A DNA stretch of 55,532 nucleotides from a virus (Duplodnaviria > Caudoviricetes). Below are positions 1,854-55,532 of this stretch, piece by piece. The notes under the pieces are model-generated. The model saw only the letters and a list, made by a program, of their open reading frames with translations, was not told the origin of the DNA and did not search any database. The position numbers and the translations under genes were made by a program. The stretch covers positions 1 through 55,532 of IMG/VR virus record IMGVR_UViG_3300045738_001117; one strand, written 5' to 3'. The first letter of the stretch is position 1. Each line of letters begins with the position of its first letter.

Positions 1854-1935
1854 GCACCCCCTGCTGTTTGGGCACCTTGTTTTAGCAGAGGACATATCTG
1901 TATGTTATTAACATACATTAACAAGCAAGGGGTGC
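1854..1935 (-). ncRNA. Candidate structured RNA cassette 1
   Basis: GCACCCCUUGCUUGUU pairs with AACAGCAGGGGGUGC (15 bp, 1 GU, 1 bulge); inner hairpin UGUAUGUUA/UAACAUACA; intergenic. Confidence 0.55.
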
Positions 1936-1948
1936 TTAGTAAAACTAA

Positions 1949-2059
1949 TCAAAGCGCACTCTGCGCACCTGCCTTTTTAGCGTCTGCTTTAGCTTTTGTC
2001 CACTCATTCCACCAGTATCCACCAAAGAATCCAATCATTAGTCCAATTATTATATCCAT
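1949..2059 (-). CDS. 36-aa membrane peptide (MDIIIGLMIGFFVGYWWNEW...)
   Basis: Read manually; AAGGAGAGGAG SD; N-terminal hydrophobic helix. Confidence 0.75.
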   Translation of the reverse strand: MDIIIGLMIGFFGGYWWNEWTKAKADAKKAGAQSAL

Positions 2060-2112
2060 AGGTCTCCTCTCCTTTTAATATTGTTAGTCAATCTAATTGC
2101 TTTAGCCAAGTT

Positions 2113-2206
2113 AATTGCTTTAGCCCATTAAAAAGTATACCCTGTCTACCCTCCTCGAGCCGATGTTTTGCCAAAAGCTCCAACTTCTCAATGGGCTTAA
2201 GCTATT
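2113..2206 (-). ncRNA. Candidate structured RNA cassette 2
   Basis: 24-nt arms 2183-2206 and 2113-2136 pair 22/24 on the minus strand (2 GU, 2 A-A); 46-nt core. Confidence 0.6.
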
Positions 2207-2276
2207 TATCTAGCATTACTGCAATGAATATTAATATACACATTGCTGCAAGGACTATCAAGCCTACTTCTAACAT
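2202..2276 (-). CDS. 24-aa membrane peptide (MLEVGLIVLAAMCILIFIAVMLDK)
   Basis: Read manually; TAATG coupling to upstream gene; GAGAGG SD. Confidence 0.6.
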   Translation of the reverse strand: MLEVGLIVLAAMCILIFIAVMLDK

Positions 2277-2455
2277 TAGAAGTTCCTCTCACCGATCTCA
2301 TAATTCTTATCGGCTTTACTATCTTCTGCTACTTTAATATACTCTTCATCTGTTACTGCACCACAATATATGCAATAACCTAAGTTTATATTGCTCATGA
2401 AGTATGATTTGCATATTAAGCACTCTCCAACACTCAGGTTTATATCTGTCATCAT
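2276..2455 (-). CDS. Small zinc-ribbon protein
   Basis: CLIC...CIYC; AAGGAGG SD before ATG at 2455 (shorter than the ORF track call). Confidence 0.75.
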   Translation of the reverse strand: MMTDINLSVGECLICKSYFMSNINLGYCIYCGAVTDEEYIKVAEDSKADKNYEIGERNF

Positions 2456-2481
2456 TATTCCTCCTTTATTAAAATAAAGTA

Positions 2482-2609
2482 TTGATTGAGCTGTTACATT
2501 GCTCGAGCAAGTGGTCATTTTTTAAAGAGGGTTTTCGACCCCAATAACATATGTGGTTATGTAGCACTGCTTTATCCACTGCTTAATCCCTTATTTTACA
2601 CTCAATCAA
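2482..2609 (-). ncRNA. Candidate structured RNA cassette 3
   Basis: UUGAUUGAG-UGU / ACA-g-CUCAAUCAA closing stem; inner hairpins AUAAC/GUUAU and GGGU/ACCC; palindrome UUGCUCGAGCAA. Confidence 0.5.
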
Positions 2610-3507: not shown

Positions 3508-3645
3508 TTATCATATGATAATCATTACTCTTTATACTTACTTATATGTACCTGTATGTACCTGTGTATAGTTATACTTATACTCTCTAAAGAGAGTATT
3601 ACTGCTATATATAGTAATAAGGGCCCTATATAGTAATAAGGGCCC
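3508..3645. repeat. AT-rich cluster of tandem and inverted repeats (possible origin/terminus/promoter region)
   Basis: Palindrome TTATCATATGATAA 3508-3521; (TATGTACCTG)x2 3545-3564; ATACTCTCT-aa-AGAGAGTAT 3580-3599; (TATATAGTAATAAGGGCCC)x2 3608-3645. Confidence 0.85.
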
Positions 3646-3701
3646 CTATGTACTCGTGTTGCTAGCCATTCGTTATAATTTATAGAACTGAAAGTGAAAC
3701 G

Positions 3702-3902: not shown

Positions 3903-4006
3903 TTGCTACCTCCTTTTTGGGTTTTCAACGAAAAAAGTGTTTTCGGAAAGTCTTCATGCTATTATGGGTGAGTATATTTGCTGCGCTTCAAAATCCTATA
4001 AAGTTC

Positions 4007-4035
4007 TTGACACACTTGGGCATTTAGTTTAAATT
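4007..4035 (+). promoter_or_regulatory. Sigma70-type promoter for the structural block
   Basis: TTGACA-17 nt-TAAATT, 11 nt before ATG 4047. Confidence 0.75.
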
Positions 4036-4046
4036 CATAAGAGATT

Positions 4047-4271
4047 ATGAGTGCCGAAGAAATAAAGAGTTTATCAAAATTGCCTCTAGAATTGCAGGAG
4101 GAGTTTCTAAAAGAGATGAGTGAGAGTGGTAATGGGGACGACAACAGGGACGTAAATATAGAGATAGATGGAATTATTTATCTTGTGCCGATGGCAGTGT
4201 CACATTTAATAGATAGTTTAGTTTTTCAGATTGGGGAGATGTATGAGATTCGGCACGATAAAGGGAATTAG
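4047..4271 (+). CDS. Acidic hypothetical protein
   Basis: First ORF after the promoter, near-leaderless; overlaps TerS start. Confidence 0.7.
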   Translation: MSAEEIKSLSKLPLELQEEFLKEMSESGNGDDNRDVNIEIDGIIYLVPMAVSHLIDSLVFQIGEMYEIRHDKGN

Positions 4272-12049: not shown

Positions 12050-12931
12050 ATGGCTAAAAAATCAGATAACTTGTCAGCAGATATTATTGTAGACAACCCT
12101 GATGAAGCAGTTGATCCTAATAATAGTTATGATGAAGCTGATGGTGAGGACTTTTTTAGGAGTCTTGACGCATCTGTTAACAGCATGACACTCGAAGGTG
12201 GCGATGAGAGGCCACCAGCAGACCCAGAAGAAGGCTTAACTTCCATAAAAAGAGTGGAATCTGCCGATGAATCTGGCGAAGCTGAAACGCTCAAAAAGAG
12301 GTACAGTGATTCAAGTAGAGAAGCAAAACGCCTTAACAAGCAATTGCAAAATGTTGAGCCTTACCTTCCTATTTTAGACGCATTAAAGAATGACCCTAAC
12401 TTGCGTACTCATGTACGTGAGTATTACGAGAGCGGAAAAGACTCGCAAGCTAGCATCAAAGAGAAACTTAATCTTAGCGAGGATTTTGTGTTTGATGGTG
12501 ATGAGGCAGTATCTAACCCCACATCTGAATCAGCCAAAGTTCTGGAGGCTGCTATTGATTCTCGAGTTCAAGGTGTTCTTGGCAATTATGCAAAAGAACA
12601 ACAACAAGAGAGTCAGCAAGCGGCTAATGAGAACAGCTTTAGAACAAAGCACGAAATGGGTGAAGATGAGTGGGAAGGTTATATGGATTATGCCCGTTCT
12701 CATAAGTTGACATATGACGATATTCTGTACCTAAAAAATAGGGAGCGGCGCGATAATAATATCGCAAAGCAAGAAAGAAGTGAAATGTTCAACCAAATGA
12801 AAAATGCCCGCAGTCGACCAACTAGTGTTAGTACTACTAGGGGTCAGCAGGCAGAAGATTCTCCTGACGATGCAGTCTTTAACGCTATTAAAGGTATAGA
12901 TAGTAAATTAGAAGAAGCATTTAGCAGCTAG
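12050..12931 (+). CDS. Capsid scaffolding protein
   Basis: Acidic N-terminus, KKRYSDSSREAKRL coiled coil, between portal and MCP. Confidence 0.8.
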   Translation: MAKKSDNLSADIIVDNPDEAVDPNNSYDEADGEDFFRSLDASVNSMTLEGGDERPPADPEEGLTSIKRVESADESGEAETLKKRYSDSSREAKRLNKQLQNVEPYLPILDALKNDPNLRTHVREYYESGKDSQASIKEKLNLSEDFVFDGDEAVSNPTSESAKVLEAAIDSRVQGVLGNYAKEQQQESQQAANENSFRTKHEMGEDEWEGYMDYARSHKLTYDDILYLKNRERRDNNIAKQERSEMFNQMKNARSRPTSVSTTRGQQAEDSPDDAVFNAIKGIDSKLEEAFSS

Positions 12932-32761: not shown

Positions 32762-34621
32762 ATGCCACAACTTGATTTAACAACTGGATATAGAAAAACT
32801 GGTGGCGGGCAAATCCAAGAGTTTTTAAAAGTCCTTAGTACATTAGATTATTGGGAAAGGAAGACTTTAAGTGATACAAGGGCCGCTAATTTAAGTTATA
32901 TGGAAGAATCTGCAACGTATTTTCAGACATCTGATCCTGCTGCGAGGGATAGTATAATAGCAGAAATAACTACCTATAAAAATTCTACTGATAGAAGAGT
33001 ATCTCAAGCTGCAGAGTTTCTGCTACCTCGTCTTAAGCAAACTAATACAATCTTAGATTCAACAGAAGAAGTGTACACACAAGTAAAAAGTATCGAGTCA
33101 AAGCTCGAGGAGAAAGCGGATTATGTTAGAACATCTGACATGAAAAGTATTATAACGAGTGCCGTTAATGCACAAAAAGATCATGCGGCGGCTTTTTCTG
33201 GAAAAGAATATCGAGTAATGGACGAAATAATTAAATCTGAGGATGAATTAAACAAACTATCTAACTATCTTAGATATTTTGATTATGATAAGCAAATGGC
33301 TGGTATGCAGTACCATGAGGATTTGCCGCTTGGATATGTAGGTAGTATTACTACATTGCTTGATAGGTGGGACAGAGGTGAAATGACTGCTGGGGATTTT
33401 AATAAAATATTAGCACAAGAAAGAGAAGAAGGTGGTCTTGGAATAGCTACGCCAGGCGTTTGGAAGACACAAGAAGATATTATAGTTGAAGGATATGCTG
33501 AGGAAATGGGAAGAATTGATAATCAAGCTACGCAGATTATGAATAGTATAAGTCCTACAATAAATTCTATTGTTACGGCAGATTTCGATAGCGACGAAAG
33601 AAGTCTTTTTGGAGTAGGAACAGTACCAATAATAGCTCAAAACAGGGAAGGTGAATGGGATATAGGATTTTCTTCACTTGTTAGGAATGTATATGTGCTA
33701 ATGGGTGAATGGGGTGACGGTAATGTTAAGAATTTACTTGGCAAAAAAGAAGAAATATATCCACTAACAACAACAGATCAATTAGCAAGATTAAAAGAAC
33801 TATACGATGAAATAATAACAGAAGGCACTGATGTTGACTTAAAAAACTGGGCTCTTAGTAAAGGCCCTGAAAGAGTAGCAATGGCTACACAAACGCTTGG
33901 AGAGGTTATGGAGCTTAAAAAGCTCTTTGAGAAAAAAAATGAAACAGGTTTAAATGCAAGAAAAATTTCAAGCGAAGCAAAAAATCGTGCTATATTTAGG
34001 ATGCCAACAGCTGACGAGCCAACAATTAACCCTGATCTTCTTAGATTTCCTACTGGTCAAGCCGCATGGCTTGGCTCTTCTAACTGGCGCCCTGAATACA
34101 AAAACTTAGAAGAACTTAAAGAACATTATTTTGAGGGATATGATATATCAACAGGAGAAACTTATAAGCTTGTAGAAGCTGGATTAATAGATAAAAAAGT
34201 TTATGAAGATATGGCCGCTGAGGGAAAAGATATTCATGGATCACTTGCTGCCCTCGAAGAAGATGATGAATGGATTGAAGAGCCAAATTGGCTTACAAAA
34301 GTTGTTAGAGAAATTGCACCTATTAGATTGTGGAGGCAAAAGCAAAAAAGGGAAGAAGCATTTGTAAGAGCTGACATAGAAATAGCGAAAGAGGAAAAGA
34401 GAAGGGCGAAAGAAACTATAGAACTCATAGAGGAGGAGTCCTCAATGCAGTTTTTAAAAAATGAAAGAAAGAAGTTAGTTAAATATTCAAAAAACCTCAA
34501 TTGGGAGAAACTTGAGAAAATTGCTAACGCAATAGGCGTTGAACACAAGGGAGTTATAAGAAAGGACCTTATAAAAATTCTTTTTGATACTATTGATGCA
34601 AGAATTGAAGCTGGGGAATAG
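32762..34621 (+). CDS. Putative internal virion protein with C-terminal Rho_N/HeH-like motif
   Basis: 619 aa helical; LNWEKLEKIANAIGVEHKGVIRKDLIKIL. Confidence 0.65.
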   Translation: MPQLDLTTGYRKTGGGQIQEFLKVLSTLDYWERKTLSDTRAANLSYMEESATYFQTSDPAARDSIIAEITTYKNSTDRRVSQAAEFLLPRLKQTNTILDSTEEVYTQVKSIESKLEEKADYVRTSDMKSIITSAVNAQKDHAAAFSGKEYRVMDEIIKSEDELNKLSNYLRYFDYDKQMAGMQYHEDLPLGYVGSITTLLDRWDRGEMTAGDFNKILAQEREEGGLGIATPGVWKTQEDIIVEGYAEEMGRIDNQATQIMNSISPTINSIVTADFDSDERSLFGVGTVPIIAQNREGEWDIGFSSLVRNVYVLMGEWGDGNVKNLLGKKEEIYPLTTTDQLARLKELYDEIITEGTDVDLKNWALSKGPERVAMATQTLGEVMELKKLFEKKNETGLNARKISSEAKNRAIFRMPTADEPTINPDLLRFPTGQAAWLGSSNWRPEYKNLEELKEHYFEGYDISTGETYKLVEAGLIDKKVYEDMAAEGKDIHGSLAALEEDDEWIEEPNWLTKVVREIAPIRLWRQKQKREEAFVRADIEIAKEEKRRAKETIELIEEESSMQFLKNERKKLVKYSKNLNWEKLEKIANAIGVEHKGVIRKDLIKILFDTIDARIEAGE

Positions 34622-34629
34622 TTGTCTAA

Positions 34630-37600
34630 ATGCCCTATTTAGATGACTATAAAACAGTCCCAGGATTAGCAGCTTATATTCGTAGAGGACAAGCAGTGCT
34701 AGCTGAAGAAGAAGGAATAACTCCTTTTCTTTTACATCCAAGATTACCAGACGAAGAAATTATAAGTACATACTTTTCAGCACATCCCGACCAGATTAAG
34801 AATCTTGATGAGAGAATAGGGAAAGAAGTATTTCCTCGAATATTCATGCTCCCAGGAGAAAGGTTGTATGAAGAGTATGGGCAAAAGTATGCGGCTGGAC
34901 TTTTTGAAGTATGGGGCAAGGGTTTAGCTGAGCATGCAGTTAATATGGTTGCCTATGTCCCAGGTCTCCTTGGTATTCATGGACCAAGGAAGTGGGCTCA
35001 AGAACAATCTAGGGAGTTGCACAGCTCTCCATCAATGCAGGCATACGCCGCATGGAGAGAAGACGAACCTGTGACATGGGATAATTTTATGCATATGGAT
35101 ATAGCCTTGAGGGGTCTTGGTGAAATGTTGCCATCAGTAACAATCATGGCTGCGTCATATTTTGGGGCTCTTGGTGCCTCTTCAAAAATAGCAGGACTTT
35201 CTGGTTTAAGTCCTCAAGCTGCCGCATTTACTACAATGGCTATTCTAGAAGGCTCTGGAGAATATATAGAAGCTATGGATATTCTGGTAAATGAGATGGG
35301 GATAGATGAAGATGAAGCATGGAAGACAGCTGCTCCCGCATCTATTGCGTATGGAATGGCAGCTGGTTATCTTGAGACAACCCCATTCTTCCACTTTTTA
35401 AAGAAATGGTCCCCTGATGCTGAGAAACATCTTCTTGGAGGATTGGTTAGGAAGTTTGTTAAAGGAAGATTTACACTTCCAATGTCTAGAAGAGCAGCTA
35501 GTGCAATAGATATGTCAATTCTTGAAGCTTCTACAGAATGGAGCCAAGGAACACTGCAAAATATAATTAACAAAGAAATACTTTTAGGTTATGCCACCTC
35601 AAATGAAGAAGCATTTACAAGGTTATGGCAAGAGTTTTCAGATGACCAGGAGATTTGGGAGCAAACATACGCTGGTGCGGTTGGTGGTCTTGCATTTGGT
35701 CTAATTGGTGGTGTTGGAGCTAAAAGAGGTGAGGCTCGTGCAAGAAGAAGGGCTCGAAGGGAAATAGTTGAAGAAGCAGCTGAAGCACCGATAGAGGTAC
35801 CACTACAAACTGGGGTTATCCAAACTGGTGAAAGAAAAGGCGAGAGTGTAGATATTGTTGGTGAGACTAAGAGTGGTAAATCATGGGTAATACAGTTTGC
35901 TGATGGCGGCGTAACAAATAAACTTAAAACAAGTGTCCTTATGGAAGAACCCACTGTTGCTGCAGCTGCTCCTGCTGCGGTAACCTCTAGAGAGTATTTA
36001 GAATCATTAATTATAGGAAGGCCACCTGTTATTATTGAAGAACCCCCTGCTGGTGAAGAGTACGATCTACAAAGACATATTAGAAGCACACAAGATTACA
36101 GTTCATTTGAAGAAAGACAATTAGACTTTTTTAAATATACCGAAGATACTAGCATCATAGATAGGTTAAGTGAAGAAGATAGAGATGTTTTATTAGGTAA
36201 TATAGGCAAATTCTTTGAAGAGCGTGAAGTAGTAAAGGGTGAGATAACTGATGAAAGAACAAGAAGTCTCATTGATATGTATGCAAAAGGAGATATATCT
36301 CTTAAAGAAAAAGCTGAAAGAATAACACCTGAAGAAGTTCTAATAGAAAAAGTAGTTACACCAACAACTGCAGAGGCTGAAACCTTCCTAGAACAAGCTA
36401 TGATGGAGTCTGAGATTGCGGCTCAAGTTGAAGCGGCTGGCTATACTCCTGGTAGTGAAGGGTTTGCTGAAGAACTAGCAACAAGAGTTGGGTCTGTTTC
36501 TGACGAAGAAGCAATACAAGATATATGGAGGGAGTCAGTTATAGCTGGTGTTGGTCAGCTCACTGGAGTACCCACTAAAACAGAATCTAAGGTTGAAGAT
36601 TTAAAAGTAGAATCTGTTTCTGATGAAGAAGTATCTAAGGCAGGGAAGGGATATAGTAAGGGTGATATAGTAAGAGTAAAACACGTAAAAGGCAAACCAA
36701 TTTCCAAATTATCTGGTAGAAATTATCAGATTGTATCCCGTGGAAATAACTCAGCTACTATTGCAGATATCCAGACAGGGAAATTACATCAGCATATTCC
36801 ATATGACTTAATATATAGGGTAAAAGCAGAAGCTCCTAGCGAGAAAAACATTAGTAAAATGTACGCAAATGACCTCAATAAGATATTAAATTCATCTGGA
36901 ATTGTTGAGAGTGCAGCAGAAGGAAGTGTAGAAAAAGAGATATATGAGTCTTTGCCTAAGACTGGAAAGGGTAAAGTATCATTTTCAGGGGCTGATAAGA
37001 AGATAGTTGCTAAAGCTGTCAGTGACTTTGTAAACAGACGCAAGCCTACAACCGAAGCACCACCATCTGAGGCATCAATAAGACAAAAAGAAGAGTTTAA
37101 TAAAAAAGTTCCCGCTATGTCAGTTGCTCGTTTAAAAGATATTTTAAAAGAACACGGAATTGAAAAGGCTGATAAATTAAATAAAGCACAATTAGTTAAA
37201 AAAGTACAAGCTCTCCCACCTGCTCCTACAGTCGAAGAAATATTTGATTTTGGTGAAGAAGCCCCAGCTGTTGCTCCTCCAGCAAAAGCAGTCACTGCAA
37301 AAGATGTACATGATGCAGCAATAAAAGCTAACTTGGAGCCCGATAGTAAAGAATTTATGGATATGTCTAAAGAAGTTGTTGATGAAAGACATATTGATAA
37401 TATGTCTAACGATCAAAGGAAACGGCTTATAGACTTTATTAAGCAAGAAGAAGCACCTGCAGTTGAAGCTCCTGCAGTAATACCTGATGATGTAACTAAG
37501 TCAGGTATTGAAATATACAAAAAGTTTATTACACAGCCTGATAAGATATATCAAAATTTTAAGTATATTATTTTGAATACTGGGAGGAAGTCATTTGGTT

Positions 37601-40600
37601 GGTTTTCTGCTTGGTACGGCCCTATAGATTACACATATACTGGAATAACTCATAAAACACAAGAGATGCCTAAAGAATTTTCTGATCTTGCAAGACAGAT
37701 TGAAGAAGCTACAGGAGTTGAAAGTGGATATTATAACAGTGCTTTAGTAAACCTTTTCCCTAAGGGTAAAGGTATAAGTGCACATGCTGATGATGAGAAC
37801 ATATTTGTTCGTGAAAATAATACTATTGGTAAGGTAGCTACTGTTAGTTTAGGTGGTTCGACTCAGATAACAATATCAGGTGCAACTGATGATGTAATTA
37901 CAGTAGACGCTGGTGATGTTTATGTAATGCCTGGTCAAGAATTTCAATTAAAGCATAAGCATGCAGTGGGTCCATCTAATCGGGAACGAATCAGTTTAAC
38001 ATTTAGACATATACCTAAGATTAGACTTGCAGTAGAGCCAGAGCCAGTTGAAGTAAAGAAGCCAGAAAGAACAAAGAGAGAAGAAAAAGGCGATGCTTTA
38101 ACTAAAGATGAAGTGGCTTCGATTGTTAATGATATTATTAAAAAGAAAGAAGGTGGTGAATACAGTGTAGAGATTGAAGTTGGCAAAGCTAAGAGATATA
38201 CAATAGAAGGCAATAGAAAATCGTATAAGAAAATAGTAAAACGCATTACTGACAAGATGCCATTTATAAAACCATTTGGAGAAAATTTTGAAACAGACAT
38301 TGTTGACAGAAGATTAGTCTTACATGACGAGAGTACTGGCACTGAATATATAATTAACTTGCCAGAAGCTGATCCTTCTACAGGAAAGAGGGTACTAGGA
38401 AGAGCATGGGGAACCTTAGTTGAATGGTCTAAAACTGGAAATCTTGATACTCCACCGCATGAGTTTTTCCATGTTTACTTTAATCTAAGAGAAGGCAGCC
38501 CAGAAAACAAACTGGCTGTAAAGATATTTGAAGCAGCTGCATATAAATGGACTAAGAATGTAAGAAAGATTAAGAAGGAGCTTACCCCACATGAAGCTGT
38601 TGGTGAGTATTTAGCTTATCATGTTGGTAAATACTATGTAGAGAGATTAACAGGTAGCCTTGCTAATAGAATAGGTTCATGGATAAAAGTATTCTGGTCA
38701 AAGTTAAAAGCTATGTTTGCAAAGTCTAAGCTTACATCACAAGACATATTTAATATTATAGCTAGTGGATTTTATTCAAAAAAGAAAGTAGAGCCGACTA
38801 GTAGCGAGCTTGATGACTTCAATATATCTACACACAAAGACAAAACAAATGCCGAATATGATGTAGAAGACGAAGATGGAAGTGAAGACGATTATAATGT
38901 GTGGGAAAGTTTAAGCGACCCTGATATTTCAAGCATAAAGAGATTAGAGCTGACTACTAGAACTATATTTGGCAAAAATCTGCTCAGTAAAGAGCTTGTA
39001 AATATACTTATGAAAGCAAGGGAAATTGAGGTGCGGAGAGACCCCACTAAGAGCTTTTCTGAAGCACATAATGAGTTTAGAGATTATGTTATTAATGCAA
39101 ACTTTGTTGATGAGTTAGATATAATAAGAAGGGAAGAGTTTTTAAAAGGTGCATCAGAAATAGCTGGTGAAGGTCGCAGTGTTATAGGTCTCAAGCGAAG
39201 AGATTTAAATAATTTACGGTTCTTGTATCAGTTTGCAAGCAGTACTATGCCAAGAGAAGGCAAAATAGAATTATGGGTTGAGAAAGACAGGCACGGAGGA
39301 ATAACATCTATTAAGAGACTCCCACCAGATATTGATCCTATCACTGGGAAGGCCCAGTCTAAGTTTGTAAACATGAGTTTCATAGACGATCTCCCTGGCA
39401 ACGTAGGTGCAAAGACTATTTTGTTGAAGTTCAGTAATATTGTTAGGGGTTTATGGTCATGGAAAGACAATGATGGTGTATCTCATACAAACTATATACC
39501 AGCCGCAGTTGAACAGACTGTAGATAGAAATGCGTTTCTTGATAAAAGACTTGGTGCAATGGACATAGCTCTAATAGGTCCCAAAGGACTTGATAAGTCA
39601 GCGTTTTTAATGACATTTGTTACTGAAGAAGACAAAAAAGAAGGCAAGAGCTTAGACGAATATCTAAGCAGAGAAGTTAATAGTAAAAATATATCAGTTG
39701 AAGATAAAGATGCATTTCTTGCTTATGCAAAAGAGAATGAAGAGTATAATCCGAATATAAATAGCCAGATAGTTGCCAAGCATAAATGGTGGAAAGCAGT
39801 CTTTGGAGATAAGTATCTTATTTGGCAAAGAGAAACTGTGACTACCACCGAAGATATGCTTAATAGAACAAGAATAGCACTGTCTGAGGGTATTATAGTA
39901 AGAGGTCTTGGGGAAGTTTCAACATTTATTGTTGACCCTGATAAAGTTAGAATTGAAATTCCAAGCAGAAAAGTAAAAGGTGAGATTAACAGTTATGAGT
40001 TAGGAGAGAAGTGGGATGGTGGAATGTATTGGTCTTCTGAACTCTCTTACAGGATTCAGGATAAATTAGGTAAGAAGCCGCTTAGAGGCGAGTTCAGTCT
40101 TTCAGAAGTTAAGCCTGCAATTTGGCATAAGACTGACAATGGTTTGTTAGCAATGAAAATGAACTGGTTCTTTCCAAGACCTGGGACACGACTGGTAGAT
40201 AAAGAAACTGGTGAGGAAGTTCTAAGAGTAATAGGCGAGCCTGGTGATATAAGAATTGTGCTTCCAGATGGTACTCTTGTAGATACGTTTGCAACAACAT
40301 TAGAAACTAAGAAGATGTGGGGAGACTTTGAGGGGAAGACTAATGAGGTTATTAATATACCTGAAAAGTCAATAAGGATTATCCAGACAACTGATCAAAA
40401 AGGAAAAGATACAGTGGCATTTCCATTTGGAGCTGTTGACTTAATGCTGTCTAATGATTTGCAAGCTGATAAAGAATTTGTTAAGGGATACGATGTAGCA
40501 ACAAAAGAGATGTTTAGAAGGGCAAATTCTGTAATCAGTCTACTGATAAACGGAAGAGCGCATCCTCAGAACTTTAAAAGACTGTTAGAAGATATCGGTA

Positions 40601-42744
40601 TTCTTAAAGATGTTGTTTCTACTATTGAAGAAGAAGCTCTCAAAGAGACACACGATTTTGCTATATTCCATCCACATTTTATGCAGAGGTTTGAGTCATC
40701 TATATTTAATTATGCGTTAAAGTCAGCTGCGTTTAGAGGAAGAGTAAAAGGCAAAGGAACATATATTGCACTTGCCCCAGACTTTGAAAACGAAATAGAT
40801 GATGGCGAGATAGGTTTTGGTGATAAGAATATGGAAGTCTTAAAGAATGCTCAGAAGAGAGTATTCACAGACGAAGAACACGAAGAATTTAGAATACTTC
40901 TAAGAGATAGAGCTACAAGGCCACAGGCAATGGAAATGCTTAGTGCAGCCCTTGAAAAGAATGATATTTATGTTATTAGGACTAGGAATCCTATTACAGA
41001 CATAGCAGCTTTTGGAATAAAAAAAGTAAGTGATATTGTTGCAGGTGCTGGAAATGTCGCAATGTTATCGAATAATGATGTTTTCGCTGTTATTCAAGGT
41101 GACTTTGATGGTGACCATCTATCTATTGATTTTATAACAGCTGAAGAAGCAAAGGCTTACTTAGCTATGCAAAACAGCAAAGCATATAAGGCAAGGCAGA
41201 AGCCAGTTGTAATGTCTTGGTTTGAACATCCTGCGGGAGTTGGGTTGCTGTCTGATCTAAATGCTGTACATGAAATTGGAGAAAGAGTATCTTTAGCACA
41301 GTATGCACAGGGCGTTATGACAAACTTAAAAGCTGTTCGTGAGGTATTGGCATACAAAAAGATATCTATTAAGGGTGAAGATGTAGCTGGTAAATCGGTG
41401 GTGTACTCAGTTGTCAATCCTTATGATGAAGTTATAATGGACTATGCTCCACTTGATGTTAGTAACAAGGACTTAAAGAAGAAAGAAAGACAGGCAATAT
41501 ACGATGAAATTATTGAGGCTAAAGGTCAAGTTGTAGATGTCAATGAAAACAATGTTAAGTTTGATGACATAAGCACAGAAAATAAATACTTTCTTAAGAC
41601 TAACTCAGCACATGAAGTTTCTATACTTACTCAGGCAGCTGTGGACAACCCTAAAGAGTTTCTATTATACCACTGGAAGTATAACGGCTATCCATTCCTA
41701 TGGAGTAGGGTGATTAAAAGAGATGATGGGCAAAGAATGGATATTAGTTTTCCTGAAACATCTGAAGTAGCTAATGATGATTATATTAGAGATGTGTGGC
41801 ACTGGATGGGTCAGGTATTTAAATATTCAGCAGCAAGGCGGGGAAGAGATAGAAAATTGAGACCACTGTTGCCAGAAGAAGTAGTTGGCTTTTCTGAAGA
41901 TATCATGGGCATGGCAGAAGCTTCGGAGGAAGAACTAAAAAACTACGTTGTTAAGAGAATGAAGGTGGCTGCTTGGCTGCAGAAAAAAAGCGATAAGGCA
42001 TTTGTGCATCAACTGCAAAATGACCACAAAGTGGACAAAATAAATATAAAGAACAATATTACTCCAACTGAAAAAATATTTGCAATGTATGCAGAGATTT
42101 ATGAAGAGACAATAGATGATGAAGCAACACCAACTGATGATGGTGTCGTTACAAGGATTCCAAAAGATTTAAGAGATCATGCTCATCATCTTGGTATCAG
42201 GCTGTTAACAAAGAACTTACCTAATGTCTTCAAAAAAGCTGGAGTTAAGATAGTATCAAGAGAAGAAAATATTAAAGCTGCTAAAGACGGAATTAAATGG
42301 GCTGACAGAGTTGGCTCGGACTTCTTAAATATATTTGCTGACCAACAATATAAGGATAAAAGAGGCAAGGTTCACAAAAAAGGAGCTGGTTTCTCATATA
42401 GGGCAAATTATTCAGACGCCCTGTCAGCGTTTATAGTAGATAATTTAGATAGTTTTAGAAATCTCTCAAAGCCTGCGCAAATGTATGCTTCTTGGTACTA
42501 TCTAAGGGGAATTTCTAAGGTTGATTATAGAGTAAAGTCGGCAGTAAAAACCATATCTAAGGTTGAAGCATTATTGCCTATGGAGCTAATGGACAAAGAT
42601 GTATTTATTGAGTATCTTGACAGTTGGGGGATGGCAGTTCAGGATGAAGATGCTGTTGCTAGTATCGTTGTAGAAAAAGAAATTGAGGACGAAGGCGTTA
42701 CAGTTGCAAGAGTCTTTAACAAAGTACAAGAGGAAATTTGTTAA
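34630..42744 (+). CDS. Polyvalent virion protein: membrane-type N-terminus, HeH, AlkB dioxygenase, zincin and two-barrel RNA polymerase
   Basis: H1052-x-D1054...H1111...R1120-ISLTF-R1126; H1277EFFH; R2119NP...GD2158FDGD; located in the ejection-protein cluster. Confidence 0.85.
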   Translation: MPYLDDYKTVPGLAAYIRRGQAVLAEEEGITPFLLHPRLPDEEIISTYFSAHPDQIKNLDERIGKEVFPRIFMLPGERLYEEYGQKYAAGLFEVWGKGLAEHAVNMVAYVPGLLGIHGPRKWAQEQSRELHSSPSMQAYAAWREDEPVTWDNFMHMDIALRGLGEMLPSVTIMAASYFGALGASSKIAGLSGLSPQAAAFTTMAILEGSGEYIEAMDILVNEMGIDEDEAWKTAAPASIAYGMAAGYLETTPFFHFLKKWSPDAEKHLLGGLVRKFVKGRFTLPMSRRAASAIDMSILEASTEWSQGTLQNIINKEILLGYATSNEEAFTRLWQEFSDDQEIWEQTYAGAVGGLAFGLIGGVGAKRGEARARRRARREIVEEAAEAPIEVPLQTGVIQTGERKGESVDIVGETKSGKSWVIQFADGGVTNKLKTSVLMEEPTVAAAAPAAVTSREYLESLIIGRPPVIIEEPPAGEEYDLQRHIRSTQDYSSFEERQLDFFKYTEDTSIIDRLSEEDRDVLLGNIGKFFEEREVVKGEITDERTRSLIDMYAKGDISLKEKAERITPEEVLIEKVVTPTTAEAETFLEQAMMESEIAAQVEAAGYTPGSEGFAEELATRVGSVSDEEAIQDIWRESVIAGVGQLTGVPTKTESKVEDLKVESVSDEEVSKAGKGYSKGDIVRVKHVKGKPISKLSGRNYQIVSRGNNSATIADIQTGKLHQHIPYDLIYRVKAEAPSEKNISKMYANDLNKILNSSGIVESAAEGSVEKEIYESLPKTGKGKVSFSGADKKIVAKAVSDFVNRRKPTTEAPPSEASIRQKEEFNKKVPAMSVARLKDILKEHGIEKADKLNKAQLVKKVQALPPAPTVEEIFDFGEEAPAVAPPAKAVTAKDVHDAAIKANLEPDSKEFMDMSKEVVDERHIDNMSNDQRKRLIDFIKQEEAPAVEAPAVIPDDVTKSGIEIYKKFITQPDKIYQNFKYIILNTGRKSFGWFSAWYGPIDYTYTGITHKTQEMPKEFSDLARQIEEATGVESGYYNSALVNLFPKGKGISAHADDENIFVRENNTIGKVATVSLGGSTQITISGATDDVITVDAGDVYVMPGQEFQLKHKHAVGPSNRERISLTFRHIPKIRLAVEPEPVEVKKPERTKREEKGDALTKDEVASIVNDIIKKKEGGEYSVEIEVGKAKRYTIEGNRKSYKKIVKRITDKMPFIKPFGENFETDIVDRRLVLHDESTGTEYIINLPEADPSTGKRVLGRAWGTLVEWSKTGNLDTPPHEFFHVYFNLREGSPENKLAVKIFEAAAYKWTKNVRKIKKELTPHEAVGEYLAYHVGKYYVERLTGSLANRIGSWIKVFWSKLKAMFAKSKLTSQDIFNIIASGFYSKKKVEPTSSELDDFNISTHKDKTNAEYDVEDEDGSEDDYNVWESLSDPDISSIKRLELTTRTIFGKNLLSKELVNILMKAREIEVRRDPTKSFSEAHNEFRDYVINANFVDELDIIRREEFLKGASEIAGEGRSVIGLKRRDLNNLRFLYQFASSTMPREGKIELWVEKDRHGGITSIKRLPPDIDPITGKAQSKFVNMSFIDDLPGNVGAKTILLKFSNIVRGLWSWKDNDGVSHTNYIPAAVEQTVDRNAFLDKRLGAMDIALIGPKGLDKSAFLMTFVTEEDKKEGKSLDEYLSREVNSKNISVEDKDAFLAYAKENEEYNPNINSQIVAKHKWWKAVFGDKYLIWQRETVTTTEDMLNRTRIALSEGIIVRGLGEVSTFIVDPDKVRIEIPSRKVKGEINSYELGEKWDGGMYWSSELSYRIQDKLGKKPLRGEFSLSEVKPAIWHKTDNGLLAMKMNWFFPRPGTRLVDKETGEEVLRVIGEPGDIRIVLPDGTLVDTFATTLETKKMWGDFEGKTNEVINIPEKSIRIIQTTDQKGKDTVAFPFGAVDLMLSNDLQADKEFVKGYDVATKEMFRRANSVISLLINGRAHPQNFKRLLEDIGILKDVVSTIEEEALKETHDFAIFHPHFMQRFESSIFNYALKSAAFRGRVKGKGTYIALAPDFENEIDDGEIGFGDKNMEVLKNAQKRVFTDEEHEEFRILLRDRATRPQAMEMLSAALEKNDIYVIRTRNPITDIAAFGIKKVSDIVAGAGNVAMLSNNDVFAVIQGDFDGDHLSIDFITAEEAKAYLAMQNSKAYKARQKPVVMSWFEHPAGVGLLSDLNAVHEIGERVSLAQYAQGVMTNLKAVREVLAYKKISIKGEDVAGKSVVYSVVNPYDEVIMDYAPLDVSNKDLKKKERQAIYDEIIEAKGQVVDVNENNVKFDDISTENKYFLKTNSAHEVSILTQAAVDNPKEFLLYHWKYNGYPFLWSRVIKRDDGQRMDISFPETSEVANDDYIRDVWHWMGQVFKYSAARRGRDRKLRPLLPEEVVGFSEDIMGMAEASEEELKNYVVKRMKVAAWLQKKSDKAFVHQLQNDHKVDKINIKNNITPTEKIFAMYAEIYEETIDDEATPTDDGVVTRIPKDLRDHAHHLGIRLLTKNLPNVFKKAGVKIVSREENIKAAKDGIKWADRVGSDFLNIFADQQYKDKRGKVHKKGAGFSYRANYSDALSAFIVDNLDSFRNLSKPAQMYASWYYLRGISKVDYRVKSAVKTISKVEALLPMELMDKDVFIEYLDSWGMAVQDEDAVASIVVEKEIEDEGVTVARVFNKVQEEIC

Positions 42745-50432: not shown

Positions 50433-50570
50433 AATGTAGGGCGAACTCTGCGTTGGCAAACATTTTGGTTCATTAAGCTGTTCCAACCTCGTCGCACACC
50501 GAAGGTGTCATCACGGAGCATATAGCCCTGGATAGTGAGACTTTTATTATACGCTTCAGCACCCTACATT
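50433..50570 (-). ncRNA. Candidate structured RNA cassette 4 (multibranch)
   Basis: AAUGUAGGGUG/CGCCCUACAUU 11-bp closing stem (1 GU); inner ACACC/GGUGU, GUUGG-AACA/UGUU-CCAAC, UCAC/GUGA. Confidence 0.6.
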
Positions 50571-50571
50571 A

Positions 50572-51366
50572 TTACGCTTGTGCTACTTTAGCCATGCTCA
50601 TAACTTTAGGATATATTTTATCTTCAAGCTTATGAGTTGCTTCTGTCTTTCTATTTAGTAAATGAGTAGCTGTCCATGTAGCTGCGTTTAATAAGTCCCA
50701 ATAGTTATTAGGCTTATTAGCTATTATATGGTTAGTGATCTTTTCAATATGTTTGCTAGGAAACATCTCAATTATATCTTTAATGTGTTCCCCTTTAACT
50801 TTAGTACCAGTAAGAATAGGCATATCAGATGCAAATATCCTTGGAATATTATCAACTACTTGTTCTATAATATTTTCAAGATTACTTAAATCCGTTTCAT
50901 TCCATATAATATGCTTAAACTTCTTATGGTCCGAGATACGACCTATTGTCATACCATTTGAGCATACTAATCTGTAAGTACCTGCAAGCACTGATACTTG
51001 CATGCTTCCATCATAAGAATTATGAATAGATACTTGCGGATTAAGCACATCTCCATCACCAATATCAACTTCCTGATCTGGAAATTTATATGTCCACTTA
51101 GTTCTGGCTCCATTAGCAAATGTATTGGATTCAGTTAAGATTCCATTCCATTTCTTAATAGCTGGAAGAGATGCGTCAACTACTTCTTGATTAGTTACTA
51201 GTCTGTAATTGTTAGTCATACAGCTAACTATGCTATCCGTGTCTTCTCTTACTATGAACTTATAACCAGTATCTGTATGCCAGCTGACTGGTTGTTGGGA
51301 TTGATTACCTGTATCTATAAAAGTAGCAGGTACTTCTTTAACTGGAAACAGTGTATTCTCTATCAT
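50572..51366 (-). CDS. DUF932 family protein
   Basis: YRLVTN, HNSYDGS, YRLVCSNG, WDLLNAAT. Confidence 0.88.
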   Translation of the reverse strand: MIENTLFPVKEVPATFIDTGNQSQQPVSWHTDTGYKFIVREDTDSIVSCMTNNYRLVTNQEVVDASLPAIKKWNGILTESNTFANGARTKWTYKFPDQEVDIGDGDVLNPQVSIHNSYDGSMQVSVLAGTYRLVCSNGMTIGRISDHKKFKHIIWNETDLSNLENIIEQVVDNIPRIFASDMPILTGTKVKGEHIKDIIEMFPSKHIEKITNHIIANKPNNYWDLLNAATWTATHLLNRKTEATHKLEDKIYPKVMSMAKVAQA

Positions 51367-52545: not shown

Positions 52546-52556
52546 TCATTAAGTTT

Positions 52557-52643
52557 AGGGAGCTAGGGCTGCCTCCACCCGTTGCCAATCACGTACGAAC
52601 TACTTCTCTGTTTGTCTTTGTGGTTCGACACTTTTAGCCCCCT
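52557..52643 (-). ncRNA. Candidate structured RNA cassette 5
   Basis: AGGGGGCUA/UAGCUCCCU 9-bp stem (1 GU); intergenic. Confidence 0.5.
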
Positions 52644-52659
52644 TAATTATTTTGTACAT

Positions 52660-52738
52660 AAAAATGGGAAAGCAGCCATTGGGGTTAAGAGTGTCCCGAG
52701 AGGTAGGGAATAAGAAGGGGTAGCCACTTTCCCTTTTA
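52660..52738 (-). ncRNA. Candidate structured RNA cassette 6 with C/U-rich loop
   Basis: GGGAAAGUGGCUA/UGGCUGCUUUCCC 13-bp stem (3 GU) plus AAAA/UUUU extension. Confidence 0.55.
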
Positions 52739-52750
52739 GTCAATATTAAC

Positions 52751-53060: not shown

Positions 53061-53148
53061 ATAAGCGGCCTTTAAGCAAGAGCGCTGTTCGCTTTTCCAC
53101 ATCGTGCAATCAGGTACCAATAGATGATACTCCTTAAAGACCACTTAT
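53061..53148 (-). ncRNA. Candidate structured RNA cassette 7
   Basis: AUAAGUGGUCUUUAAG/CUUAAAGGCCGCUUAU uninterrupted 16-bp stem (2 GU); 56-nt core. Confidence 0.6.
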
Positions 53149-55238: not shown

Positions 55239-55532
55239 ACAGTTTCTAACCAATCTTTCATTTCATCGACGGTGCCATCAAAGATATCTTTATTATCATA
55301 AACTTTATGTACTCTTACTTTTAACATATCATTAGTTTCTTCTATACAACGATGAACATATATTGTGTATATATACTCTTCTCCATAATCTCTTGTATTT
55401 GCAGTATGAAGATAAAAATCTCCCGCTCCTTGTTTAAAATGACTTATTACTTGAGCAGCCAAACAACTCATTCCGTTAGCTAATGAGTCATCACTTCTAC
55501 CCACAGGTAATCCATTTACAATATCCATACCT
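55235..55532 (-). CDS. 3' part of the junction-spanning gene that starts at 298
   Basis: In frame across the terminal overlap. Confidence 0.85.
   Translation of the reverse strand, partial: GMDIVNGLPVGRSDDSLANGMSCLAAQVISHFKQGAGDFYLHTANTRDYGEEYIYTIYVHRCIEETNDMLKVRVHKVYDNKDIFDGTVDEMKDWLETV
55357..55532. repeat. Terminal direct repeat / circular overlap, right copy
   Basis: Matches 1-176 with one mismatch. Confidence 0.97.

Follow-up and report, generated by a model that had tools for sequence, protein, structure and literature searches.

Candidate structured RNA modules in the early-gene block of a marine tailed phage, including an RNA family absent from Rfam

Introduction

In phage T7 the sites of RNase III are plain hairpins, about two helical turns long, that contain an internal loop. 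The intergenic regions of phages and metagenomes are likewise known to hold small ribozymes that cleave themselves and the aptamers of riboswitches, both represented in Rfam. Here we describe seven intergenic elements, each closed by a stem, in a nearly complete viral genome of 55.5 kb (IMG/VR record IMGVR_UViG_3300045738_001117, estimated completeness 99%; its full stretch of 55,532 nucleotides is called the window). An earlier reading of the sequence alone (the original prediction) had proposed that these elements belong to a system for excising small RNAs from an early transcript, and we name them el1 to el7 in the order in which it listed them. Our preferred reading, to which we give a probability of about 0.68, is that the gaps hold mutually unrelated, individually conserved and autonomous structured RNA domains, which are carried in an early polycistronic transcript.

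The RNase III hairpins of T7 early mRNA resemble the elements in being intercistronic, double-helical structures on the sense strand of an early polycistronic transcript. The two differ in that only el2 is as long as a T7 site, and in that the stems in the window close conserved cores of 40-116 nt with inner helices; as cutting sites, moreover, the latter are putative. Ribozymes and aptamers resemble el4 in their compact multi-helix folds, basal P1 helix, invariant unpaired nucleotides and sites that tolerate inserts. Unlike them, el4 matches no Rfam model and has no fixed downstream gene.

The elements known as PeSLs in T4-type phages combine a repeated, strong sigma-70-like promoter with a terminator hairpin (PMC2839356). 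PeSLs are small intergenic stem-loop cassettes of plastic early regions that are shuffled among close relatives, and in this they are like the window modules, but the latter are single-copy and mutually unrelated, and show no excess of promoters or terminators. In the Cellulophaga phage phi14:2, long intergenic regions of the early block are transcribed above most genes and persist late in infection (bioRxiv 10.1101/2020.03.07.982082). Both phi14:2 and the window phage are marine and have long intergenic regions in the early block; phi14:2 is crAss-like, whereas the window phage is not shown to be so, and the two are likened by gap position alone, with no comparison of sequence or structure. 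Finally, Fremin, Bhatt and Kyrpides (2023) surveyed more than 5 million viral sequences and predicted 10,006 intergenic RNA motifs with support from covariation (PMC10690425), so this kind of element is already known. The reference list of that study cites IMG/VR v3, and our alignments are likewise drawn from IMG/VR and JGI contigs. The examples highlighted in its text are tRNA-like structures, terminators and motifs upstream of GP20 or GP32, whereas for el4 the gene upstream is SSB-like or DUF932. The el4 family is new relative to Rfam, and el4 above all adds members to a known kind; what is novel here is the density and turnover of the modules, and not a demonstrated new mechanism.

Results

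Stem-closed elements in the gaps of the leftward block

The leftward genes of the window run from 46.4 kb across the junction to 4.2 kb, and are densely packed save for eight gaps of at least 100 nt. Six of these eight contain the seven elements, in keeping with the claim that most sizeable gaps of the block hold a cassette; the remaining two are 3515-3701 and 3903-4230. The GC content of the element-bearing gaps is 0.33-0.44, versus 0.26-0.28 in short gaps (about 37% for the window). All seven inverted repeats were located where the original prediction had placed them (four are recovered directly by a repeat search), and the minimum free energy (MFE) folds of the sense strand close all seven elements with the predicted stems. 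Counted inward without gaps, the stems of el2 (22 of 24 pairs), el4 (11), el5 (9) and el6 (13) have the predicted lengths, and that of el7 reaches 16 pairs or more. The stem of el1 has 12 such pairs, the predicted 15 being obtained only with one bulge, and that of el3 has 10 rather than 12. The closing stem is also present in the MFE structures of all 19 homologue sequences examined.

Folding energies were compared with those of 200 dinucleotide shuffles per element, at the coordinates of the original prediction; these had been picked to maximise the stems. The sense-strand z-scores are -3.8, -5.1, -1.8, -1.7, -1.1, -3.65 and -3.9 for el1 to el7, and those of the opposite strand are -2.8, -3.0, -1.8, -1.2, -2.0, -0.6 and -2.4, respectively. 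Thus el1, el2, el6 and el7 are clearly more stable than their shuffles. For whole gaps, which involve no such selection, the sense z-scores range from -0.75 to -2.9, and 40 coding windows of the same block, used as controls, have a mean z of -0.29 (sd 1.2). Helices of 9 bp or longer with loops of 30-130 nt are frequent throughout the genome (the window has 478 on its minus and 716 on its plus strand), so that short stems by themselves prove nothing.

The pairing shows a strong preference for one strand. The original prediction had counted 10 G-U pairs, all on the transcribed minus strand, in stems that were extended by eye; its stems contain 11, and the sense-strand bias itself holds. To answer the caveat about extension by eye, each stem was extended inward by a fixed rule until two consecutive mismatches were met, which gives 85 Watson-Crick pairs, 13 G-U pairs, one A-C and five other mismatches on the sense strand (the rule slightly favours G-U where two wobble pairs adjoin). 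An A-C mismatch on the sense strand corresponds to a G-U pair on the opposite strand, and the ratio of 13 to 1 therefore supports the gene-sense (minus) strand. The el4 family, described below, is co-oriented with a flanking open reading frame (ORF) in all 40 loci examined. The part of the original interpretation that stands is that the elements are structured RNA modules, specific to one strand, within a block of co-oriented genes, and we infer that the modules are co-transcribed with the genes and act at the RNA level.

el4 and its RNA family

The RNA reading is well supported for el4 (50433-50570, minus strand; 11-bp closing stem), which begins 2 nt past the stop codon of the DUF932-family gene directly upstream of it (50572-51366, minus strand; Pfam PF06067, E 6e-15). 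Cultured phage records gave no match to the window by near or distant DNA search. A query with the Erf protein led to two viral contigs, one of which has a 54-nt match to el4 in another gene context, and patterns made from the blocks common to the two el4 copies retrieved 7 viral contigs and 33 metagenome contigs.

The el4 core of about 75 nt comprises a basal stem P1, helices P2 and P4, a tentative P3, and long invariant loops. P2 is an invariant helix of 4 bp, and P4 is a 3-bp hairpin with a 4-nt loop (RNAalifold). The shortest members are about 75 nt long, and in these minimal forms P1 has only 6-8 pairs; other members bear inserted hairpins of variable length at one position. An alignment of 27 distinct sequences has 44 invariant and 8 nearly invariant columns. 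Within it, the P1 pair at columns 8/162 is AU in 20 sequences and GC in 7, and is never broken, while that at columns 11/159 is U-G throughout (27 of 27), an invariant wobble that again points to the sense strand. One P4 pair is CG in 13 sequences, AU in 7 and UA in 6, and is broken only in the copy from the window, where the loop carries an insertion of 9 nt.

With the proposed structure, 90.7% of the 486 cells of this alignment pair, versus 28.8-49.5% when the partners are slid; for 30 distinct variants the values are 89-91% and 28-50%, respectively. The covariation score of el4 is 0.289, compared with 0.126 ± 0.015 in shuffles, and was matched by none of 500 shuffles. P4 pairs in 100% of cells in a model-fitted alignment of 30 distinct rows, although such an alignment leans toward its own model. 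The covariance model R1 (P1, P2, P4 and the invariant loops), built from the alignment of 27 sequences, matches 40 of 46 sources, always at a single site, and nothing further in the window. Against R1 the copy from the window has a score of 101 bits (E 3e-20), a match that is by construction since this copy is in the seed.

Thirty-four of the el4 loci have an upstream ORF, which is SSB-like in 19 and DUF932 in 7, including the window, and el4 starts 8-20 nt after the stop codon of this ORF in 16 of the 34. The SSB-like proteins have 189-211 amino acids and an acidic C-terminal tip, which is typical of bacterial SSB, and one of three tested matches a PHROG SSB family; the lineage of the window is without an SSB-like gene. 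These proteins are only 31-45% identical between subgroups, so that the RNA core, with its 44 invariant columns, is better conserved than the neighbouring proteins. Downstream of el4 there are at least 10 unrelated gene clusters. The many conserved unpaired nucleotides of el4 exceed what a cutting signal would need, and so speak for RNAs that have their own function.

Exchange of modules among relatives

The decisive evidence comes from comparison with relatives. A homologue was found for each of the seven elements in related marine viral or metagenome contigs, in each case as a discrete module with differing flanks. Contigs are designated here by L numbers. Those of lineage A (L024, L037, L043 and L051) and lineage B (L028 and L048) have 80-87% identity to the early block of the window, and provide the homologues of el1, el2, el5, el6 and el7; those of el3 come from a related record and a further pattern scan. 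Scans of viral contigs with el6 and el2 patterns had no matches, and none of the relatives sought via the small flanking proteins and the DUF932 protein was confirmed. Two scans of cellular genomes with the el4 and el3 patterns also had no matches, and gave no clue to the host.

The three lineages carry different sets of modules. The window and both lineages A and B have el4, el5 and el6 in common; el1 is shared with lineage A and not B, and el2 and el7 are shared with lineage B and not A. The el7 slot is filled in lineage A by three other stem-closed modules, two of which adjoin el7 in lineage B, and the el1 slot is filled in lineage B by yet another module. There is no clean empty site among the compared slots, as other modules fill them. 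Both el3 and el4 sit between different genes in different phages. A further family, found in L002 and L008, has a conserved core with closing stems that are entirely different but still complementary, and one module is free-standing in L008 and nested within the el4 variable region in L007. Tandem arrays of further stem-closed modules occur at L002:6966-7356, on the minus strand of L008 upstream of el4, and at L024:5050-5330.

The other six elements

Support for the RNA reading is reasonable in the case of el2, el3 and el5, and weaker in that of el1, el6 and el7. The longest stem, and the only one of about two helical turns, is that of el2 (2113-2206, minus strand; 94 nt). Its homologue in L028, around 12317-12389, is 76% identical, with a conserved central core block, and over 15 pairs of the stem there are four compensatory, two one-sided and two disruptive changes. 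Just 3' of el2, at 2072-2112, a 14-nt unit with a short spacer is tandemly duplicated, and one copy (23 nt) is absent from the contigs of one marine run.

For el3 (2482-2609, minus strand; 128 nt; 10-bp closing stem), whose z-score is not significant, there are five distinct sequences, four of them from beyond the window (L054/L058, L055, L056 and L057). The closing stem forms in all homologues, and an A to G change in L055 and L057 gives a G-U pair that forms on the sense strand only. A variable inner hairpin also retains its pairing across the homologues. The 3' half (2481-2543) is the invariant and widely conserved part. Over 2486-2549 the metagenome contigs reach 3-10 times the depth seen in the flanks, and positions 2480 and 2543 are where many of them diverge, so this 63-nt half occurs in many contexts. 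Perfect short palindromes are present in el3, as they are in el1.

Homologues of el5 (52557-52643, minus strand; 87 nt; 9-bp closing stem; z-score not significant) are present in two further lineages (L037/L024/L051 and L028). Over 18 pair comparisons its stem has three compensatory, two one-sided and no disruptive changes, while the core diverges; the MAFFT alignment lost the register of this stem. The adjacent el6 (52666-52733, minus strand; 68 nt) has a 13-bp stem, of which three pairs are G-U and after which a U-run follows, and a core rich in pyrimidines. The stability of this element is confined to the sense strand. Among four el6 sequences, 11 of the 13 pairs never vary, one has a one-sided change, and one is broken in two sequences. 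The interior of el6 is joined to the 5' end of el5, on the plus strand, by a helix of 15 bp that includes G-U pairs (52627-52695).

The inner part of el1 (1854-1935, minus strand; 82 nt) has a hairpin of 7-8 bp. The el1 homologue (L024:118-209) is 84% identical, with one compensatory change in this hairpin (U-A to C-G) and a U-G to C-G change in the stem, and a strain variant at 1905 converts U-A to U-G, which retains pairing on the sense strand only. In the cores of el1 (at 1886-1893) and el6 (52666-52733), runs rich in pyrimidines are exposed, and these are complementary to the strong Shine-Dalgarno sequences found at the genes of the phage. The remaining element, el7 (53061-53148, minus strand; 88 nt; 16-bp closing stem), is 96% identical to its homologue at L028:8496-8602, with both flanks unalignable, which gives the module a sharp border.

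Comparison with known element types

The original prediction held that the elements share an architecture and no obvious sequence, and this is what we find: the best element-to-element E-value is 0.14, there is no significant similarity elsewhere in the window, and each module is single-copy. The elements belong to no Rfam family, as a search of the whole window with the 4227 models of Rfam 15 had no matches at the gathering score. The sole match with E up to 10 that overlaps an element, a plus-strand microRNA model at 52600-52723, is far below gathering and was taken as chance. ARAGORN found no tRNA or tmRNA in the window, and no tRNA in 39 related loci.

Intrinsic terminators had been discounted on the basis of loop size, and rightly so: the module loops are 40-116 nt, against the 3-8 nt of such terminators, terminator-like sites number 2 and 5 against 1.5 and 3.5 expected, and a clear U-run follows the stem of el6 only. 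No promoter or terminator consensus site lies inside any module, and promoter-like sites (17 and 30) show no excess over shuffles (17.9 and 36.2). Nor do the cores encode peptides, as there are stops in most sense frames and the length of el4 varies out of frame. Relatives do show covariation, in el4, as well as changes that are compensatory in the stems of el2 and el5 and in the hairpin of el1, and that preserve pairing as G-U in el3.

Several specific identities were set aside. A riboswitch would be expected to have a consistent class of downstream gene, which the clusters downstream of el4 do not form. Miniature inverted-repeat transposable elements do not fit, as the modules are single-copy and their terminal stems vary while the cores are conserved, and neither do PeSLs, since the modules are unrepeated in the window and lack a promoter excess. 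The hexamer AACAGC was considered as a common signal, as four of the block's eight copies lie in the 685 nt of the elements, but was picked post hoc; in 65 non-redundant gaps it occurs 12 times versus 4.2 expected, an excess attributed mainly to the invariant copy in el4.

Genome setting

The rightward genes, at about 4.2-46.4 kb, include those for the small and large terminase subunits, portal and tail proteins, and the leftward block encodes a DnaB-like helicase, a DNA methyltransferase, the DUF932 protein, an Erf-like annealing protein, a Cas4-like exonuclease and a Holliday-junction resolvase. Positions 55356-55532 repeat positions 1-177 and one gene spans the junction, so the genome was circularly assembled or is terminally redundant. 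The phage, or parts of a 3.4-kb query from it, was matched in 20 DNA runs (labelled as marine, seawater or hydrothermal-vent metagenomes, from 14 studies), and the record may have come from one of these runs.

The gap at 3515-3701 is unlike the cassettes: direct repeats occur there in two pairs, together with several short, perfectly paired hairpins. With z of about -2.4 to -3.2 it is stable on either strand, and it looks like a regulatory or origin-type region. Adjoining the tail genes is an ORF of 2704 amino acids (34630-42744, plus strand), with an AlkB-like 2OG-Fe(II) oxygenase domain at residues 998-1126 and a single DFDGD motif at residue 2158. A DFDSD motif is present in a 619-amino acid ORF at 32762-34621. 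A DFDGD-type motif is described for crAss-like phage virion RNA polymerases in the phi14:2 study (bioRxiv 10.1101/2020.03.07.982082). As a polymerase the giant ORF has no PHROG or PDB match, and a virion polymerase might transcribe the early block.

Discussion

In the proposed mechanism, each domain would fold alone, with its 5' and 3' ends paired as a basal helix, which is the closing stem. This helix would insulate the fold from adjoining sequence, so that the same module could work in varied gene contexts and relatives could gain, lose, swap and nest modules. The conserved unpaired nucleotides of the cores suggest that the modules bind a conserved partner or catalyse a reaction, and such a partner would be a host or phage protein, an RNA or a small molecule. 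That the modules are mere spacers is unlikely.

A number of observations weigh against the reading of the gaps as autonomous RNA domains, or limit how far it extends. Energy alone fails to separate el3, el4 and el5 from their shuffles. As a whole, the gap that holds el5 and el6 (52546-52750) has a more stable antisense fold (z -2.9) than sense fold (z -0.75), and an antisense transcript or an alternative conformation is possible there. In el1, a second predicted inner hairpin is disrupted by two linked variants, at 1876 and 1879, so this part of its fold is probably wrong, and in el4 only 70.7% of the P3 cells pair (30 rows), for which reason we treat this helix as tentative; the predicted inner folds are thus probably only partly right. 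The evidence from relatives has its own limits: common ancestry among the related sequences makes the shuffle statistics too high; el1, el2 and el7 have a single homologue each; the homologues of el6 and el7 are nearly identical, and so carry no covariation information; and the pair tallies of el2 and el5 were read by eye from the sequences rather than computed. Lastly, among the 23 runs listed as matching the phage, none is an RNA run.

The main alternatives differ in what they have the modules do. The original prediction favoured excision, in which host RNase III would cut the closing stems to give stable small RNAs and separately stabilised mRNAs; the small RNAs would be antisense regulators, protein decoys or RNA anti-CRISPRs. 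The coincidence of module borders with stems agrees with this, as does the likelihood that modules unmarked by promoter or terminator consensus sites are co-transcribed, and the abundant, persistent early intergenic RNA of the marine phage phi14:2, as reported in bioRxiv 10.1101/2020.03.07.982082, offers a parallel. Substrates of E. coli RNase III typically have two helical turns, and stacked short helices can also serve (PMC1540722). The 22 of 24 pairs of el2 match this typical length, and excision of el2 is plausible. However, the other six stems, at 9-16 bp, are under two turns unless coaxially stacked, and the P1 of minimal el4 forms is shorter still; as a general account we consider excision doubtful. 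Alternatively, the modules may stay in the message as cis-acting punctuation, controlling the stability, 3'-end formation or translation of neighbouring genes, for instance if they block exonucleases or Rho loading or mask ribosome-binding sites. Such a role is suggested by the short distance between el4 and the upstream stop codon at nearly half of the loci with an upstream ORF (mostly SSB-like or DUF932 genes), by the el6 stem with its U-run, and by the several modules that end 4-16 nt ahead of the next start codon. The el1 core also complements the ribosome-binding site of the gene that follows, yet the MFE structure of this gap leaves the pairing unused, and masking by el1 was rejected. 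A cis role is further opposed by the fact that the neighbours of el3, el4 and el7 differ between phages, by terminator-like sites that are no commoner than in shuffles and absent from the modules, and by an invariance, in the long loops of el4 and in the 3' half of el3, that exceeds the needs of a stabiliser. We regard it as possible, with the balance somewhat against it.

Two further explanations concern the chemical nature of the elements. A compact core with several short helices and 44 invariant, mostly unpaired columns, which tolerates variable hairpin inserts at one position and occurs always in sense and once per genome, has the profile of the small ribozymes and riboswitch aptamers that were found by comparative genomics. 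On this basis el4, and perhaps others, could be a new self-cleaving ribozyme or ligand-binding aptamer acting within the early transcript; there is, however, no Rfam ribozyme or riboswitch match at E up to 10, and no conserved class of downstream gene as a riboswitch would have, and we think this identity improbable. The elements could also act as DNA, whether as miniature mobile elements, as replication or recombination sites, or as cruciforms for a virion RNA polymerase. Presence/absence polymorphism, one nested insertion, the location in a replication and recombination module, the palindromes of el1 and el3, and the hint of a virion polymerase in the single DFDGD motif of the giant ORF are all compatible with this. 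Yet each element has one copy per genome and no similarity to the others, none was found in the two scans of cellular genomes, and the internal helices covary. The conserved cores, with terminal repeats that change and stay complementary, are the reverse of what is seen at transposon ends, and this, together with the wobble pairs that fall nearly all on one strand, makes a DNA-level role very unlikely.

The reading of the modules as autonomous RNA domains may be extended to an exchangeable library, with a dozen or more families seen among the relatives, whose members would be released and act on conserved host machinery or defences, and of which at least one, el4, would be a new catalytic or ligand-binding class. 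This extension is speculative and, in our judgement, unlikely to hold in full.

The early regions of phages are usually read as strings of small proteins of unassigned role. The present analysis suggests that a sizeable share of the non-coding DNA of an early block is selected as RNA structure, and is traded between close relatives like genes. The el4 RNA, at 75-95 nt and with 30 distinct variants across marine viral and metagenome contigs, is short enough for direct biochemical assay. If the modules are cis-acting punctuation, they would explain how gene expression is kept intact while the genes themselves are shuffled; if they act in trans, they would constitute an RNA layer in the host takeover or counter-defence of abundant ocean phages.

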